Below are positions 6,961 to 32,817 of a stretch of 64,000 nucleotides of DNA, in pieces. Origin of the DNA: Candidatus Iainarchaeum sp. (lineage in GTDB: Archaea > Iainarchaeota > Iainarchaeia > Iainarchaeales > Iainarchaeaceae). The first letter of the stretch is position 1, and each line of letters starts with the position of its first letter. The notes below the pieces were generated by a model. That model did no database searches, had not been told where the DNA came from, and saw only the letters and a program-made list of their open reading frames with translations. The DNA is taken from positions 52,111 to 116,110 of the forward strand of contig JBDRLP010000027.1 of the NCBI GenBank assembly GCA_043812975.1, read 5' to 3'. The translations under genes and the position numbers were made by a program.

Positions 6961-7364
6961 TCCTCCTTTTTTTCTTCGTTTTCATCAGAATCTTCTTCAG
7001 AATCATCCTCAGTCTCTTCCTCGGTTTCCTCTTCAGTTTCTTCTGCTTCTTTATCTGCTGTGTCTTCGGTCTCTGTTGCTTCTTCATCTGTGCTTGGGTC
7101 TTCGTCTGAATCTTCCTGAGTTTCTGCCTCACCATCAGCAGCTTCCTCAGAATCTCCAATAACTTCCCCAAAGCTTACTTTGCCTCTTACAGCATTAATC
7201 TTTACTTTTACTTTATCTCCTTTCTGCACGTTAGGCACTATAATCACATAGTTGTTAACTCTAGCGATTCCGTCGCCTTTTTCTCCAATTCCTTCAATTT
7301 CGACATCATAAATGTCTCCTTCTTTTACCGGAATTGCACCAAATCTTCCTCTTTTTCCGTCCAT
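6957..7364 (-). CDS. TRAM domain protein with a long acidic (D/E/T-rich) C-terminal tail
   Basis: TRAM-like beta-barrel sequence (GDIYDVEIEGIGEKGDGIARVNNYVIIVPN...GDKVKVKI) followed by about 60 residues of acidic low complexity. Confidence 0.65.
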   Translation of the reverse strand: MDGKRGRFGAIPVKEGDIYDVEIEGIGEKGDGIARVNNYVIIVPNVQKGDKVKVKINAVRGKVSFGEVIGDSEEAADGEAETQEDSDEDPSTDEEATETEDTADKEAEETEEETEEETEDDSEEDSDENEEKKEE

Positions 7365-7536
7365 TTAATTTCCCCCTTTACTTATTTTTCAAACAACGTG
7401 CGGATGCCAATCAAAACCTGTCTAATGAATTATTACTCATAGAATAAGGTTATTTGTTGAAATCCAATCCTATATTAATAGGTGCTTTTAAACTATTTAA
7501 ATGAATCCCTTTTTGCCAGAATCAGCTTATATTGAT

Positions 7537-7824
7537 TTATTTTAGCACTTCTAGGGTTCCTTGTCTGCCTGTACCTAACTGCACTTGGCCTCGGAATTCA
7601 GAGCAGTAACCATTAGAAATCTTGATTTTATCGCCCTCTTCGACCTGATCTGTCTGTTCATTCCATAGGCTAAGGCTTACTTCTCCGGTTTCATCCTTTC
7701 CTGCACAGTTACATACTGTTCCGGATCCTTTTTCATTAGCCCATTTCCTGATTTCGCCTTTTGAGGTTATTTCAAGTTCGATTTCATCAACTGGCGCTCT
7801 TGCTTTTAGTTCTGAAACTTTCAT
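7537..7824 (-). CDS. Small single-OB-fold nucleic-acid-binding protein; the annotated ORF extends to 7902 through structured non-coding sequence
   Basis: MKVSELKARAPVDEIELEI...VSLSLWNEQTD...GDKIKISNGY: OB-fold SSB-like pattern; TATA-like TTTATAG about 30 nt upstream of the ATG at 7824. Confidence 0.55.
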   Translation of the reverse strand: MKVSELKARAPVDEIELEITSKGEIRKWANEKGSGTVCNCAGKDETGEVSLSLWNEQTDQVEEGDKIKISNGYCSEFRGQVQLGTGRQGTLEVLK

Positions 7825-7927
7825 AGTAAACTCACTTAGAATATGAAAACTATAAATGCTTTTAAAACAACCGTTGCGTCGGTTGGGTGCGCGGATGTCC
7901 AACCCATCTGCGATGGGTTATAATGCC

Positions 7928-7976
7928 AAATTAGAAATCAAATAATTCTATCAATAATAAATTCAGGTTTGAATTC
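7928..7976. repeat. 49-bp direct repeat, copy 1 (duplicate of the ftsY 3' coding end plus stop)
   Basis: Identical to 8705..8753 (aaattagaaatcaaataattctatcaataataaattcaggtttgaattc); encodes ...EFKPEFIIDRII* on the minus strand. Confidence 0.9.
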
Positions 7977-8667
7977 AAGCCCTTCTGCGGATTCTTGAAA
8001 GTCTTTTTCGAGAAATTTCAAACCCCCACGAGTTTTTTGCTAGTGTTCTGAGAATATTTGGGGGCCTGCCTAAAAGCGAGTTATGGGTTTTAGCGGGGAG
8101 GTATCTTGCGGCAATTCTGTTTCGGGTTCCATGAGGCAGTAATCTTAAAGCACCCCTACTGATGTGTATTTTTGGCGGGTCTAATCTCCGTGCTGAATAA
8201 TGTTCTCCTGAAAAGTGTATGAATGCATCTATTAGTGCAGCATCAAAGTTTTTTCCTGTTGCTTTTAGAAAATCTCTTGGACCTTTCCCTTTTACCCCGT
8301 GCATTTCTGATATAATAAATGGCAGGCCAATCCTGATTTCAATCGAGCCAACAATATTGTTGGCCTTGTCTACTATTTGCAGTGTTGGTACATTGAAGTG
8401 TTCTTTGTCATTCACTATCATAAAATTACTGTATTGGATTCTGTATCCGTTTCCAAGGTCTTTCTTGAATCTTGTCATTGCACTGCAAAACGAAAATAAG
8501 TCAGCTCTGTCTTTTTCGCTTAAAGATTTCAAATCATGAGATATACTAGATATCGATATATGCGGTTCTATTTTTGTTGAAAGAATTTTTTCAGTAGTAA
8601 GAACCCCAAGTAATTCTCTTAATTGGTCGTCTAATTCTCTTTCAAGATTTTTTTGGTTCTGTCCCAT
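7975..8667 (-). CDS. 230-aa hypothetical basic protein carried by the insertion bounded by the 49-bp direct repeats; the Arg-rich C-terminal third lies in a locally GC-rich segment
   Basis: A long uninterrupted ORF in an AT-rich genome; the stop abuts repeat copy 1; the C-terminus has a weak tyrosine-recombinase box II-like pattern (HGTRNRIAARYL...SLLGRPPNI) but no confident family. Confidence 0.4.
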   Translation of the reverse strand: MGQNQKNLERELDDQLRELLGVLTTEKILSTKIEPHISISSISHDLKSLSEKDRADLFSFCSAMTRFKKDLGNGYRIQYSNFMIVNDKEHFNVPTLQIVDKANNIVGSIEIRIGLPFIISEMHGVKGKGPRDFLKATGKNFDAALIDAFIHFSGEHYSARRLDPPKIHISRGALRLLPHGTRNRIAARYLPAKTHNSLLGRPPNILRTLAKNSWGFEISRKRLSRIRRRA

Positions 8668-8704
8668 AATTTTATAATGTTCCTTGAGAATTTAAATTTT
8701 GTTA

Positions 8705-8753
8705 AAATTAGAAATCAAATAATTCTATCAATAATAAATTCAGGTTTGAATTC
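8705..8753. repeat. 49-bp direct repeat, copy 2 (the authentic 3' end of ftsY)
   Basis: Identical to 7928..7976; overlaps the last 13 codons and stop of ftsY. Confidence 0.9.
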
Positions 8754-10007
8754 TAATAAATCCTCATACCTTTGCCCTGTTCCCACAAACACAATTGGCT
8801 TTTTCAATTTGTATAAAAGCGAAATAGCGGTTCCACCTTTTGTATCAGTATCTATTTTGCTTAGTATAAATCCGTCGATTCCAATTGCATTATCAAATTC
8901 AGTTGCCTGTTGCAGAAGAGCCTGTCCGGTGTAAGCTTCTCCCACATATAATTTCACATCTGGTTTAATCACGCGTTCAATTTTTTTAAGTTCTTCAATC
9001 AGATTTTTGTTGGTGTCCTGTCTTCCTGCAGAATCGATTAAAACAACATCAATATTTTTTGCTTCTGCTGCTTTCACTGCATCAAATGCAACAGCTGCAG
9101 GATCGCTTCCGTAATTATGCTTTACAACTTTAACTCCGAGTTTTTTCCCGTGTTCTTCTAACTGATCAATTGCTGCTGCTCTGAAAGTATCTCCTGCTGC
9201 CAGAATAACGCTTTTCCCATGCTCCATAAAGTACTTAGAAATTTTTGCTATTGAGGTTGTTTTACCTGCTCCGTTTGGACCCAAAAATAAAATTTTTAAT
9301 GGTTTTTCTGTTCTTGTAAGCAAATCTATTTTTTCTGTTTGCATTATTTTTTCAAGAGAACTTTTAACTTCTGCTTTAAGAAATTCTCCAATATCTTCTT
9401 TTGCAGAAATATCTTTTCCAATCAGCCGTTCTTTTAATTCATTTACAATTGCTTCTGCAGTATCCTGTTCAACATCAGATTCCAATAAGCTTAATTCAAA
9501 TTCATCAAAAAATTCTCCTGCTTCTTTTTCGGTTATTTTTATTTTCCCGCCTACAAAACCGAATAGTTTTTTCCCTAAACCAACTTTTGCCTTTAATTCT
9601 CTTTTCTCATCTTCACGAATTTCTTTTACTTTTTCTTCAGGGGTCTTCTCTTCACCGCCGATAGAAAATTCTCCTTCTTTTATTTCAGGTTCTTCAATTT
9701 CTTCAGTTTGTGGTTCAGTTTCAAGTTCAATTGGTTCCTCAGTTTCCTGTTCCGGTTTTTCAATTATTTCTTCTTTAGAAACAGTTTCCTCAACAACAGG
9801 AGTTTCTTCAATTTCTTTAGTTTCAATAACTTTTTCCTTAACTTCCTGTTTTATTTTAGGTTCTTTTTTTTGTTCCAGAATTGGTTCTTTTTTCTCCTGA
9901 ACTTCAGTAATTTGTTCAGGTTCTGGTTTTTTCGGTTCCTGTTTTTGTAGTTTTTCCATTAATTTATCTGTAAAATTAGAGACCTTTTTCTTTAGGAAAT
10001 CAAACAT
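8715..10007 (-). CDS. ftsY: Signal recognition particle receptor FtsY with a Glu/Lys-rich N-terminal extension
   Basis: SRP GTPase NG domain (LFLGPNGAGKTTSIAKIS, DTFRAAA, DSAGRQ); acidic repetitive N-terminus. Confidence 0.95.
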   Translation of the reverse strand: MFDFLKKKVSNFTDKLMEKLQKQEPKKPEPEQITEVQEKKEPILEQKKEPKIKQEVKEKVIETKEIEETPVVEETVSKEEIIEKPEQETEEPIELETEPQTEEIEEPEIKEGEFSIGGEEKTPEEKVKEIREDEKRELKAKVGLGKKLFGFVGGKIKITEKEAGEFFDEFELSLLESDVEQDTAEAIVNELKERLIGKDISAKEDIGEFLKAEVKSSLEKIMQTEKIDLLTRTEKPLKILFLGPNGAGKTTSIAKISKYFMEHGKSVILAAGDTFRAAAIDQLEEHGKKLGVKVVKHNYGSDPAAVAFDAVKAAEAKNIDVVLIDSAGRQDTNKNLIEELKKIERVIKPDVKLYVGEAYTGQALLQQATEFDNAIGIDGFILSKIDTDTKGGTAISLLYKLKKPIVFVGTGQRYEDLLEFKPEFIIDRII

Positions 10008-13189: not shown

Positions 13190-13816
13190 TTATTCCACTA
13201 CTGTCATTTTTACATTATCGAATATTGTCGAATCGGGCCCCCCATAGAATGTTGGAAATAACCAAACTCTTATGCAATTTGCTCCTGCCGGAACAAGGTA
13301 AGTGAACTCTTTATTTTGCCACGTATTATTGGTTGTGACTTCTCCAGCAGTCCCGGAGTTTCCTGCTCCGCAGCTTCTAACCATAACTAATGCTTCTGTT
13401 GGCCCTCCTACAGTTCCTTGTTTATATGAAAAGTTTACTTTTACTGTTTTTCCATATAGTTCATTCAAATCATAATCAGTCAAAATAATCGCCCCGCCTG
13501 ACGATATAGGAATAATTTCAACTGCATAGTTTCCGTATGGAGTATTAGTGCTCTGTACTGCCGTTACACCAGAGAGTAGGTCCCAGTAATCCGGGTAAGT
13601 TGTAAGCGTCCAAGTTTCGAAGCTTGAGTTTTTAAGAAAATTTGTTGAAACTCCTGCGGCTTCTCGTATTTTGTCGAATGCTGTTGTTGCTGATGTTGTG
13701 ACTTGTGTTTCTCCTGTTCCTGCTATGCTTAGTATTAGTGTGATTACGATTACGGCTACGAGTACTGCTCCGCCTATGAGTAGTAGGTATTCTAGTGCTC
13801 CTTGTGCTTTTTGCAT
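13190..13816 (-). CDS. Type IV pilin-like protein (class III signal peptide) with a C-terminal CBM/jelly-roll-like domain, paralog 1
   Basis: N-terminus MQKAQGALEYLLLIGGAVLVAVIVI... (archaeal prepilin K-A-Q-G/ALEYLL motif plus hydrophobic helix); C-terminal beta-rich domain with NSSFETW...W pattern reminiscent of CBM4/9. Confidence 0.7.
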   Translation of the reverse strand: MQKAQGALEYLLLIGGAVLVAVIVITLILSIAGTGETQVTTSATTAFDKIREAAGVSTNFLKNSSFETWTLTTYPDYWDLLSGVTAVQSTNTPYGNYAVEIIPISSGGAIILTDYDLNELYGKTVKVNFSYKQGTVGGPTEALVMVRSCGAGNSGTAGEVTTNNTWQNKEFTYLVPAGANCIRVWLFPTFYGGPDSTIFDNVKMTVVE

Positions 13817-13860
13817 TTGATTTAGAATTGGTTTTTGAATTATTTATTGGTTTGGGTTTT
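13655..13860. repeat. Conserved 5' block (promoter/5'UTR plus first 55 codons) of tandem pilin gene 1
   Basis: Near-identical nucleotide sequence to 14323..14525 and 15078..15280. Confidence 0.85.
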
Positions 13861-13861
13861 G

Positions 13862-14485
13862 TTATGTTTTAACTAATTTTATATCATCAAAATAAACAGT
13901 TCCGTTTGGAATTGTTGAACCTAAATTGTCCCACTTGATTTCCACAGTAATGGTTGCTCCTGCTGCTGTGCAGGTTACAGGCCCAGAACCATCAGTCCAT
14001 ACATTTGGAAAGCTGCTGGTCATCCAGTCCAGAGATCTGTAACCCTCAGTACAGGAATTACTAAAAGCAATGCGTGCACTTCCGCCTATAATATTTGGTT
14101 TGGTCCATCCTGATAAAGCATATGTATCTCCGGCTGTGACATTAAGTGTTTGGGATGCATAACCATAAGAAGAACCCGAACCATCATGAGTCATTTTCAA
14201 AGAACTGTTTCCAGTTCTGCGGTCATCTGTTGAAGAGGAAACACTTATTCCTCCTCCTGTAAGCCAACTACTCAATCCGCTTTCAAAGCTTCCGTTAGCC
14301 AAGAGATTATTGCTACCGCCGCCTGCGGCTTCTCGTATTTTGTCGAATGCTGTTGTTGCTGTTGTTGTTACTTGTGTTTCTCCTGTTCCTGCTATGCTTA
14401 GTATTAGTGTGATTACGATTACGGCTACGAGTACTGCTCCGCCGATTAAGAGTAGGTATTCTAGTGCTCCTTGTGCTTTTTGCAT
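13862..14485 (-). CDS. Type IV pilin-like protein with a C-terminal CBM-like domain, paralog 2
   Basis: Identical N-terminal 55 aa; C-terminal NGSFESG...W...YFDDIKL pattern typical of CBM_4_9-like beta-sandwich domains. Confidence 0.7.
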   Translation of the reverse strand: MQKAQGALEYLLLIGGAVLVAVIVITLILSIAGTGETQVTTTATTAFDKIREAAGGGSNNLLANGSFESGLSSWLTGGGISVSSSTDDRRTGNSSLKMTHDGSGSSYGYASQTLNVTAGDTYALSGWTKPNIIGGSARIAFSNSCTEGYRSLDWMTSSFPNVWTDGSGPVTCTAAGATITVEIKWDNLGSTIPNGTVYFDDIKLVKT

Positions 14486-14525
14486 TTACTTAGAATTGGT
14501 TTTTGGATTATTTATTGGTTTGGAT
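14323..14525. repeat. Conserved 5' block of tandem pilin gene 2
   Basis: Near-identical to the 5' blocks of the neighbouring paralogs. Confidence 0.85.
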
Positions 14526-15239
14526 TTAGGTCTCTGTTACTTTCACATTATCATAATCAATTGTTTGAGCACCGTAACTTAATAGTCCGATTCCGCCTGT
14601 AGCATGTCCTGTAAAATTATCTTCTCCTGCATAAACCCCGTTTACATATAATTTTACGTTTTGTCCTATTACTACCAGTTTTATGCGGTAAGTTGTTCCG
14701 TTAACCCAAGCCGCTCCGGTTATTGGGTCAGTAAGATCCACAATTTGACCAGTACTCCAATCGTAGAGCCTCCAATAATTCCAGGCATAATACCTGTACA
14801 ACAACATCGAGTTTGTGCTTCCTGAAGTATTAGAATTTCTGTAAACTGCGCCCATATAACTTGTTCCTGAAACTGGGGTAAAATCAAATTCAAAAGTATG
14901 ATCGCCATACGATCCTGTGAGATCCTGTGCAAATTTCCAACCGTCTGCTGTTGCAGCATGCCTGAACTTTCCTCCTGTAACACTCCAGATTATATTTGAC
15001 CCAGTAGTGGTCCAAACAGGATTAGATGTGTAATCCCCATCACTGAAATTATCAAAAAAACTTGCCGTTCCTCCCCCTGCGGCTTCTCGTATTTTGTCGA
15101 ATGCTGTTGTTGCTGATGTTGTGACTTGTGTTTCTCCTGTTCCTGCTATGCTTAGGATTAGTGTGATTACGATTACTGCTACGAGTACTGCTCCGCCTAT
15201 GAGTAGTAGGTATTCTAGTGCTCCTTGTGCTTTTTGCAT
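14526..15239 (-). CDS. Type IV pilin-like protein with a C-terminal concanavalin A-like lectin/LamG-like domain, paralog 3
   Basis: Identical N-terminal 55 aa; C-terminal domain resembles LamG/ConA-like lectin folds (YRIKLVVIGQNVKLYVNGVYAGED...IDYDNVKV). Confidence 0.7.
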   Translation of the reverse strand: MQKAQGALEYLLLIGGAVLVAVIVITLILSIAGTGETQVTTSATTAFDKIREAAGGGTASFFDNFSDGDYTSNPVWTTTGSNIIWSVTGGKFRHAATADGWKFAQDLTGSYGDHTFEFDFTPVSGTSYMGAVYRNSNTSGSTNSMLLYRYYAWNYWRLYDWSTGQIVDLTDPITGAAWVNGTTYRIKLVVIGQNVKLYVNGVYAGEDNFTGHATGGIGLLSYGAQTIDYDNVKVTET

Positions 15240-15280
15240 TTACTTAGAATTGGTTTTTGGATTATTTATTCTTTTGGGTT
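15078..15280. repeat. Conserved 5' block of tandem pilin gene 3
   Basis: Near-identical to the 5' blocks of paralogs 1 and 2. Confidence 0.85.
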
Positions 15281-15571
15281 TTATAAGTTTTTAATTTTCC
15301 TTTCAAATCCGCATTCTTTGCATTTTATTATTTTCATTGTTCCTGTTTTTTTTGTTTCAGAATTAGTTTTATTCAAAAAAGAATTGCATTTTTTGCAGTA
15401 TTTTGTTTTTAGTTCGTTTGGAAATCTTACTCGGGTTTTTTTCCCAATTTCGATTGCAAGGCAAATATATCTTTTGCTTCGTTTCGGGTGCTTTTTCAGT
15501 TCTTTTTCAGCTAGTTCAAACAACCTGTAAATTCGTTCCAATCCGATTTGCTGCATTTTTGTGTGTTTCAT
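15281..15571 (-). CDS. rnp4: Ribonuclease P protein component 4 (Rpp21/Rnp4), zinc ribbon
   Basis: ERIYRLFELAEK...KRYICLAIEIGKKTRVRFP...KYCKKCNSFL...IKCKECG: Rpp21 pattern with a CxxC...CxxC ribbon. Confidence 0.75.
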   Translation of the reverse strand: MKHTKMQQIGLERIYRLFELAEKELKKHPKRSKRYICLAIEIGKKTRVRFPNELKTKYCKKCNSFLNKTNSETKKTGTMKIIKCKECGFERKIKNL

Positions 15572-18281: not shown

Positions 18282-18387
18282 TGCGGGCGCCGAGAATCGA
18301 ACTCGGGCCACAACCTTATTGCAAATAATCTTACTTAGTTTCGATTCTTTTTGGCAAGGTTGCGTACTACCGCTATACTACGCCCGC
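18282..18387 (-). tRNA. tRNA-Gly (anticodon GCC) with a roughly 33-nt intron at the canonical 37/38 position
   Basis: Acceptor GCGGGCG/CGCCCGC, anticodon stem CAACC/GGUUG flanking UUGCCA + intron, T arm CCGAG-UUCGAUU-CUCGG; 105 nt in total. Confidence 0.8.
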
Positions 18388-31921: not shown

Positions 31922-31990
31922 CCGCAGACCCGCGGCGGTAGGGCGTATTATCTTCGTCCCTTAAGGGGGACTCGATAATACTTGCGTTGT
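31922..31990 (+). repeat. GC-rich two-hairpin structured element, family copy A
   Basis: gccgc-agaccc-gcggc hairpin, GGUAGGGCG linker, 8-bp stem GUAUUAUC/GAUAAUAC enclosing UUCG...hairpin...GGACUC, ACUUGCG tail. Confidence 0.5.
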
Positions 31991-32050
31991 GTAGGAAGTC
32001 TGATCTGTGTATAAAGTCTGATTCTTGTGTAAAAAGCAAAACAAGAACAG
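31985..32050. repeat. Intergenic repeat, copy 1 (agtctgat...tgtgtaaaaagcaaaacaagaaca)
   Basis: Shares ctgtgtaaaaagcaaaacaagaaca with 32715..32775 and a partial copy at 33245..33290. Confidence 0.7.
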
Positions 32051-32131: not shown

Positions 32132-32689
32132 CTATTTCTTTTTGAATGTTAACCACAAAATTACTGGAGGATATGCAATTGCTGAAAGTCCAAAAAGGAG
32201 ATATAAAATAGGTATTAAAGCGCTTGATAGGGAAGGAGAAAAAGAAGTAAATAGAAAAATTACCGGAATAAATCCAATTACAATTAAGGCGATAAATTTC
32301 AGGAATTTTAAGAAAACTGGCCAAAATTTTTCTTTTTGGCTAAATTTGAGCCAACCAAAAGTTAGGATAGGCAATATTATTGAACCTAATAAAAAAAAGA
32401 CGTACAAAAAGGGGGCTATGTCAAGTAATTGGGTTAATGGTCCAAATGAAATCATAAGGGCAATACTAAAGAATAGTATAGTTACAAGAATAGGGCTTAT
32501 TACTTTTACTAAGAGTTGATGTTCAGTTTTTAGTCCGTCTAAAATCTTATTATATAAAAAATAACCAAAAAGAAACATGGAATATACAAAAAGAGGGATT
32601 ATAAAAATAATCCAAATAACGATTACTACAAGTGAATTAAAGGCGCCCCCAAAAGCAACTTGACCTCTTTGTTCATCTAAAATGTTCAT
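32132..32689 (-). CDS. Integral membrane protein, hypothetical
   Basis: 5-6 TM helices. Confidence 0.4.
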   Translation of the reverse strand: MNILDEQRGQVAFGGAFNSLVVIVIWIIFIIPLFVYSMFLFGYFLYNKILDGLKTEHQLLVKVISPILVTILFFSIALMISFGPLTQLLDIAPFLYVFFLLGSIILPILTFGWLKFSQKEKFWPVFLKFLKFIALIVIGFIPVIFLFTSFSPSLSSALIPILYLLFGLSAIAYPPVILWLTFKKK

Positions 32690-32714: not shown

Positions 32715-32775
32715 TTATTTATAATTAATTCGCCGTGTAGAAAGTCTTGATTCTGTGTAAAAAGCAAAACAAGAA
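32715..32775. repeat. Intergenic repeat, copy 2
   Basis: gaaagtcttgattctgtgtaaaaagcaaaacaagaacaa. Confidence 0.7.
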
Positions 32776-32817
32776 CAATAAAACAAGAGTTATAAACTAG
32801 AACAGATTTATATTATT

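Follow-up and report, generated by a model that had tools for sequence, protein, structure and literature searches.

A one-gene insert between att-like repeats at the 3′ end of ftsY in a DPANN archaeon, and its GNAT-like cargo family

Immediately downstream of ftsY in a DPANN archaeon of the Diapherotrites/Iainarchaeia lineage lies an insert of a kind new to us, carrying one gene and bounded by att-like direct repeats of the ftsY 3′ end. The gene product, here called ORF230, belongs to an unnamed and likewise new family with a GNAT-like predicted fold. It is not a mobility protein, and the insert is therefore non-autonomous. Integration by a single crossover at the gene end is a plausible origin for this arrangement, and is proposed here tentatively.

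Anatomy of the insert and its surroundings

The repeat (AAATTAGAAATCAAATAATTCTATCAATAATAAATTCAGGTTTGAATTC) is found at 7928-7976 and 8705-8753, with 100% identity between the copies and a start-to-start spacing of 777 nt. Read in the direction of ftsY, it runs GAATTC AAA CCT GAA TTT ATT ATT GAT AGA ATT ATT TGA and then TTTCTAATTT, that is, the 12 final sense codons of the gene, its stop codon, and 10 nt of downstream sequence. The original prediction had both copies at these positions; it was also right about the stop codon and the 10 nt, but its count of 13 codons is reached only by including the stop. At both edges identity breaks off abruptly, with no extended or partial homology beyond. 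This is the only pair of exact repeats of such length in the window (the whole 64-kb stretch of DNA analyzed here), so that a chance origin can be dismissed.

Copy R1 (8705..8753, minus strand; attL-like) consists of the ftsY codons EFKPEFIIDRII, the TGA stop, and the 10 nt downstream. Copy R2 (7928..7976, minus strand; attR-like) duplicates the 3′ end of ftsY at a displaced site, as non-coding sequence, and abuts the sequence that comes after ftsY in relatives with an empty site. The 728 nt between them (predicted as about 730) are made up of a 37-nt leader (8668-8704, minus strand) and a single 230-codon ORF on the ftsY strand (7975-8667, minus strand), the last two bases of whose TGA stop are supplied by R2. 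The overall order is thus ftsY-R-(leader and gene)-R-old downstream sequence, where R is 49 identical bases. The product is entered at NCBI as MFH1391285.1, [quoted passage not shown] on a contig of 149.7 kb. The insert is exactly one gene, without pseudogene debris; tblastn and blastn searches with ftsY matched only the 49-nt repeat, and the idea of a decayed ftsY fragment inside it was dropped. Inverted repeats were not found at its ends, nor was a further copy of ORF230 or of the repeat found within the 64-kb window. Within the leader, at 8690-8699, a TATA-like box rich in A/T (AAATTTAAAT) precedes the ORF230 ATG by 23-32 nt; it could plausibly serve as the gene's own promoter and give a leaderless mRNA. 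A counterpart of the leader was not found in the corresponding intergenic region of either L001 or L018, two of the relatives discussed below.

The window is archaeal and AT-rich (GC 0.344). On its minus strand, the surroundings of the insert include genes for L31e, eIF6, an L18A-type ribosomal protein (assigned by a Pfam Ribosomal_L18A match on the L088 orthologue), prefoldin alpha, FtsY, an OB-fold Ssb-like protein (7537..7825, minus strand; Pfam Ssb-like_OB, 5e-07; syntenic with L001, L018, and L011), a TRAM-domain protein, and SRP54. The ftsY gene itself (8715..10007, minus strand; Pfam SRP54, 1e-71, and SRP54_N; NCBI name FtsY) encodes an intact SRP receptor, 81% identical to that of L001 and 78% to that of L018. 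As to SRP54, the gene in relative L016 (L016:9952-13077) has an in-frame 603-codon insertion exactly in the P-loop (GLFGSGK/CVHPET...IVHN/TTTTGKLAKW). With Cys1, a terminal HN followed by Thr (intein termini), and the LAGLIDADG-type motifs LGYVCADGH and YFDCDGY, this is probably an intein that includes a homing endonuclease; SRP54 of the window has no insertion of this type.

The C-terminal third of ORF230 had been predicted to sit in a GC-rich segment. GC content is indeed raised there, but modestly (0.42-0.47 vs. a window mean of 0.34) and no higher than in parts of the neighboring genes (e.g., 0.46-0.48 at 7000-7150); over 8000-8200 it lies at 0.44-0.47, and GC skew is reversed at 8000-8150. 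This third of the protein has 15 Arg in 76 residues, encoded chiefly by AGA/AGG as in host genes, and being genuine coding sequence it accounts for the local rise in GC. By GC3 (rank 40 of 41, z +1.5) and synonymous codon score (z -1.36), ORF230 deviates mildly from the rest of the window, reaching the limit of the host range without exceeding it, which is compatible with recent gain from a compositionally similar donor.

Repeats of other kinds also occur in the window. A 43-nt direct repeat with 86% identity (32007-32049 and 32735-32777, with a partial copy at 31989-32006) has its copies 728 nt apart and brackets a single hydrophobic-rich ORF of 185 aa (32132-32689, minus strand). Neither copy lies within a gene, and in appearance they are closer to duplicated promoter or operator sequence than to a gene end. 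At 13190-15281, three paralogous genes lie in tandem and share a 212-nt repeat (86-94% identity). Their products, 207-237 aa long, have signal peptides of Class III (archaeal pilin-type), and two also have carbohydrate-binding or 3-keto-disaccharide-hydrolase-like domains.

Empty sites and the region downstream of ftsY

A survey of ftsY loci, taking one genome per species, returned 79. The comparison with relatives that had been suggested as a check of the original prediction did reveal empty sites, in five of them: an OB-fold gene directly follows ftsY in L001, L018, and L011 (Iainarchaeum andersonii), and SRP54 does so in L009 and L013. When the insert and one repeat copy are removed, the window is collinear with L001 and L018 from the ftsY end across the intergenic region to the promoter and start of the OB gene. 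Taken together, the empty sites and this collinearity identify the insertion as the derived state. The FtsY proteins of the three relatives with an OB gene at the empty site are only 58-81% identical to that of the window, 81% being the nearest found, and the exact FtsY, OB-fold, and ORF230 proteins had no match in the position index. ORF230 is absent from the site in outgroups of several depths (L011, L009, L013, L017, L022, L024, and L025), and no relic of it was found there in the relatives and outgroups examined. No close copies of ORF230 were found in JGI metagenomes or IMG/VR, and a 39-mer from the ftsY tail had no match in JGI metagenomes.

Between the window and L001, the repeat sequence differs at about six of 42 aligned positions (counted by eye); between R1 and R2 it does not differ at all. 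The duplication is therefore either young relative to that split or has been homogenized, and the best explanation is that the insertion took place once this lineage had separated from the closest relatives sequenced. For the L001 lineage there are three assemblies, which agree exactly wherever they overlap; the two reaching past ftsY have the empty site. A Logan contig of the same lineage (L090; SRR5036876_60) has its 3′ end inside the ftsY stop codon (...GATTTTGTG), at the position of the window's insertion, and in two other assemblies the same sequence runs on into the OB-fold gene; the contig end could represent population heterogeneity or a mere assembly break.

The region 3′ of ftsY is variable in this clade. 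In L002, L007, L016, and others, unrelated genes lie between ftsY and the OB gene, in the three named without repeats; they are genes for a membrane protein and an ABC transporter, a small ORF of 110 aa, and one of 234 aa that runs on the opposite strand. In the 17 relatives with sufficient downstream sequence, no second copy of the ftsY tail was found downstream of ftsY above shuffled controls, whether exact (at least 14 nt) or decayed, so there is no evidence of repeated use of the site.

Three perfect hairpins had been described at 7866..7925 (minus strand), in the GC-rich intergenic sequence that precedes a T-run and the OB-gene promoter. This segment is original sequence downstream of ftsY, outside the insert. 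Two hairpins (9 and 6 bp) coexist in its minimum-energy fold (-21.4 kcal/mol), but the third, by our reading of the sequence, shares arms with them and would be an alternative. The fold is marginally better than expected (z -2.0), with six of 200 shuffles folding equally well, and the segment is probably a terminator region. About four GC-rich hairpins are found in the same ftsY-OB intergenic place in L001 (L001:7260-7415), unrelated in sequence to those at 7866-7925, and none in L018; the two clusters may represent terminators whose hairpins evolve fast, or else small insertions of palindromic sequence.

A structured RNA spanning 7860..8220, also part of the original prediction, was rejected. 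Rfam searches of the whole window at gathering thresholds, and of 7400-8800 at E<=10, returned only tRNAs elsewhere and one chance match, and the stretch 7977-8225 folds no better than shuffles (z +2.05 for the minus strand, +0.70 for the plus strand). It encodes, moreover, the conserved and confidently predicted tail of the protein. Among the Rfam tRNA matches, one at 18282-18387 (minus strand; 106 nt, 55.8 bits) receives no call from ARAGORN and is probably an intron-containing archaeal tRNA.

The ORF230 protein family

Sequence searches with ORF230 against Pfam, PHROGs, NCBIfam, PADLOC, and the PDB gave nothing significant. A word-indexed homologue search returned ORF230 itself only, and its profile version three proteins; an exhaustive phmmer search was needed to reveal the family. 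Over 1.84 billion cluster representatives, this found 26 relatives with E-values of 9e-21 to 7e-4. All except two are 146-266 aa long, with alignments extending to query residues ~190-217, and 24 relatives of similar length were used for the family alignment. Conserved motifs are distributed over the whole length: GY-I, VG-L-F--G-P-EI--IQG, P--F---TG-HFD--LID, PK--F, NRI--RY-P, and a basic F/RV----F---RR end, where dashes represent variable positions. ORF230 retains 29 of 39 family-conserved positions, within the range of 22-33 for members; a notable deviation is the H that it has where the IQG motif shows a near-invariant Q. It looks intact, not decaying.

AlphaFold2 modeling with the family alignment (pLDDT 83.5, pTM 0.80) predicts a helix-strand core followed by C-terminal helices. 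Mean pLDDT per 10 residues is 84-95 over residues 151-200 and 211-230, and 61 at 201-210. The model has the alpha/beta arrangement of the GNAT fold and not that of an integrase. A family motif, QG--G--P, resembles GNAT motif A, ORF230 having HG at this point; Foldseek E-values are weak, and acetyltransferase profiles from Pfam and NCBIfam matched none of 25 members. On the modeled structure, the family is GNAT-like but very divergent, and ORF230 is probably an acyl- or acetyltransferase. The C-terminal tail of about 60 residues is an additional feature of the family, conserved, basic, and helical.

The original prediction had seen in this tail a “box II-like” motif and in the ORF a possible remnant of a tyrosine recombinase. 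The motif turns out to be the family's own conserved NRI--RY-P, and the protein is an intact member of a conserved family, with a GNAT fold in the model and no Pfam integrase match. The R-H-R-Y catalytic domain of a tyrosine recombinase is not present and the fold is the wrong one, and the identification was rejected.

In other metagenomes, members of the family are single genes in varied archaeal housekeeping contexts. Their neighbors are S8e together with a small protein; TBP; and tRNA_edit and SerRS, a setting in which Trm56 and TFIIE-alpha lie close by as well. No conserved partner gene was found beside family members across the loci examined in other genomes, and no flanking repeats of at least 14 nt were found around them. 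The GNAT-like protein was also considered as the toxin of a toxin-antitoxin pair, but the insert has no partner ORF and there is no conserved neighbor across loci, and this reading was set aside. At two independent metagenomic loci (L080, and L081/L082; P0002 and P0003), the family gene adjoins a small protein ending in ...ELQEV..GPKKAKQI...YEE, which from its sequence appears to be of helix-hairpin-helix type. The relative orientation of the two genes is opposite between L080 and L081/L082, and in L081 S8e adjoins as well; L080 is a 786-nt contig that begins 14 nt ahead of the family gene. With about 26 representatives among the 1.84 billion protein clusters, a GNAT-like predicted core, and a conserved basic tail, the cargo of the insert defines a rare, as yet unnamed archaeal family.

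Possible origins and comparison with known systems

The original prediction saw at the 3′ end of ftsY the footprint of site-specific integration. The insertion is real, with the gene end regenerated and a displaced duplicate left behind, but for the mechanism one can so far say only that integration is plausible, a reading adopted here with some reservation. A circular incoming molecule would have carried a 49-nt site identical to the 3′ end of ftsY on the chromosome. A single reciprocal crossover of the Campbell type, joining the two sites, would have created attL and attR, regenerated the end of ftsY, and placed a 728-nt DNA with one gene and a short promoter-like leader immediately downstream. 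The empty-site junction would then read ftsY-R followed by GGCATTATAACCC, and the junction of the circle would read from the ORF230 end through R to TAACAAAATTT. The cargo not being a mobility protein, the element might be the remnant of a larger integrated element that has lost its integrase, in the manner of the CIMEs (cis-mobilizable elements) discussed below, or a mini-element that depends for its recombination on an enzyme encoded outside it.

In favor of integration, the direct repeats accompany a regenerated target-gene end, relatives have the empty site with a single att copy, a displaced copy was left, and the length of 49 nt is within the range of archaeal att sites (29-69 bp in Crenarchaeota, with a median of 45; PMC6563490). 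Against a site-specific origin, no integrase was found in the insert, whose only ORF has a predicted GNAT fold, or by Pfam scan in any of the other 30 window ORFs that reach 200 aa; neither recurrence at the site in the 17 relatives nor other copies in the window, JGI metagenomes, or IMG/VR were found; and family members elsewhere lack bracketing repeats. A single gene without pseudogene debris is also unusual for a decayed element.

The same arrangement could conceivably result without a site-specific recombinase, by capture of DNA during repair with the 49-nt duplication as a by-product; this is possible, if doubtful. One way would be homology-facilitated illegitimate recombination, with ftsY as the anchor; another, a templated insertion that joined up again 49 nt upstream of the break. 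In line with such a process, no integrase was found in the insert or the other window ORFs scanned, and the event is unique among the relatives checked. An insert trimmed exactly to one gene plus 37 nt fits capture equally well, and the region 3′ of ftsY is variable, L002, L007, and L016 having unrelated genes there without repeats. Set against this, the length and position of the repeat and the exact regeneration of the gene end form the classic att footprint (PMC6563490), and homology does not extend, even in part, past either edge of the repeat. Should ORF230 instead be an older resident, its relatives would have lost the gene by recombination between the repeats, with gene conversion keeping these identical in the window. 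Direct repeats of 49 nt would permit such precise deletion, and the composition of ORF230 is no clear outlier, but outgroups of several depths also lack the gene at this site, no gene relic or second tail copy is found in relatives, and the origin of the repeat would still need explaining; we consider this history quite improbable.

It is decidedly unlikely that the insert is an artefact, with the gene spliced into a chimeric MAG contig via a shared 49-mer. The window does come from a metagenome-assembled genome, the single assembly of its strain, but the 49-mer would have to be shared at both ends of the foreign gene, the stop codon of ORF230 is neatly completed by the repeat, its Arg codon usage is host-like, and nothing in the sequence points to a misjoin. 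In the default series of common metagenome assemblers, 49 is neither k nor k-1, and the final k exceeds 49, so that contig k-mers would span the repeat. The chance that the structured RNA or the decayed recombinase of the original prediction explains the locus seems next to negligible: the locally raised GC, the skew reversal, and the hairpins that suggested as much are outweighed by the lack of Rfam and Phage_integrase matches, the shuffle-like folding, the conserved tail, and the predicted fold.

If integration by a crossover did occur, a reduced DPANN genome has gained a gene via an att-type site at the end of the essential gene ftsY. Integration scars could then persist with one cargo gene and without a recombinase, which would help in recognizing non-autonomous elements in MAGs. 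Neither the insert nor the family overturns current understanding, and the mechanism proposed rests on a single instance, from a MAG.

An IS element, transposon, or MITE can be set aside, as the insert has neither terminal inverted repeats nor a transposase. The usual target-site duplication of transposons is 2-15 nt, and 49 nt is far longer. Integrase-mediated insertion into the 3′-distal part of protein genes has been documented in archaea (PMC6563490). The integrated elements known from archaea (the “cryptic integrated elements” of Thaumarchaeota, and the SSV and pNOB8 types) share with the ftsY insert their flanking repeats, a target gene whose 3′ end is regenerated, the att length, and the empty site; they are multigene, however, and nearly all have an integrase, in contrast to the 728 nt and single non-mobility gene found here. 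The CIMEs are a described bacterial class that keeps attL and attR and has lost the integrase (PMC5704250). Those of streptococcal ICE and IME systems resemble the insert in having attL and attR, located where a target gene has its 3′ end, and in lacking genes for integration and transfer (PMC5704250), and both features are found at ftsY as well. Unlike the insert, CIMEs are bacterial, kilobases long, and recognized via a cognate ICE or IME at the same att site; for the ftsY insert no cognate was found, and in particular no integrase-bearing element among the 30 other ORFs scanned.

From the closest known superfamily, GNAT (Gcn5-related N-acetyltransferase; e.g., NatD/Naa40), the cargo protein departs in having no profile match, in its extra basic tail of about 60 residues, and in the H that replaces a near-invariant Q.

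In size and content, the insert is similar to the gene cassettes of integrons: one ORF and a short sequence the size of a recombination site, in a hypothetical circle of 777 bp. The attC site of a cassette is an imperfect palindrome, whereas the ftsY repeat folds weakly (-4.2 and -4.3 kcal/mol, the latter being the best fold) and copies a host gene end; the insert also has its own promoter-like leader, and no IntI was found in the window. With no attC-like hairpin in the repeat and no integrase among the window ORFs scanned, an integron cassette as such was rejected. One might still imagine a living minimal mobile cassette in DPANN archaea, a 777-bp circle with one cargo gene and a 49-nt att site mimicking the end of ftsY, inserted and excised in trans by a recombinase whose gene lies elsewhere in the genome or on another element in the same cell. 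We think this improbable, and the minimal selfish cassette of the original prediction is not borne out by a second copy, a recombinase, or recurrence. If such a living cassette did exist, archaea would have in it their own equivalent of integron cassettes or CIMEs, and no smaller att-bounded element would have been described.
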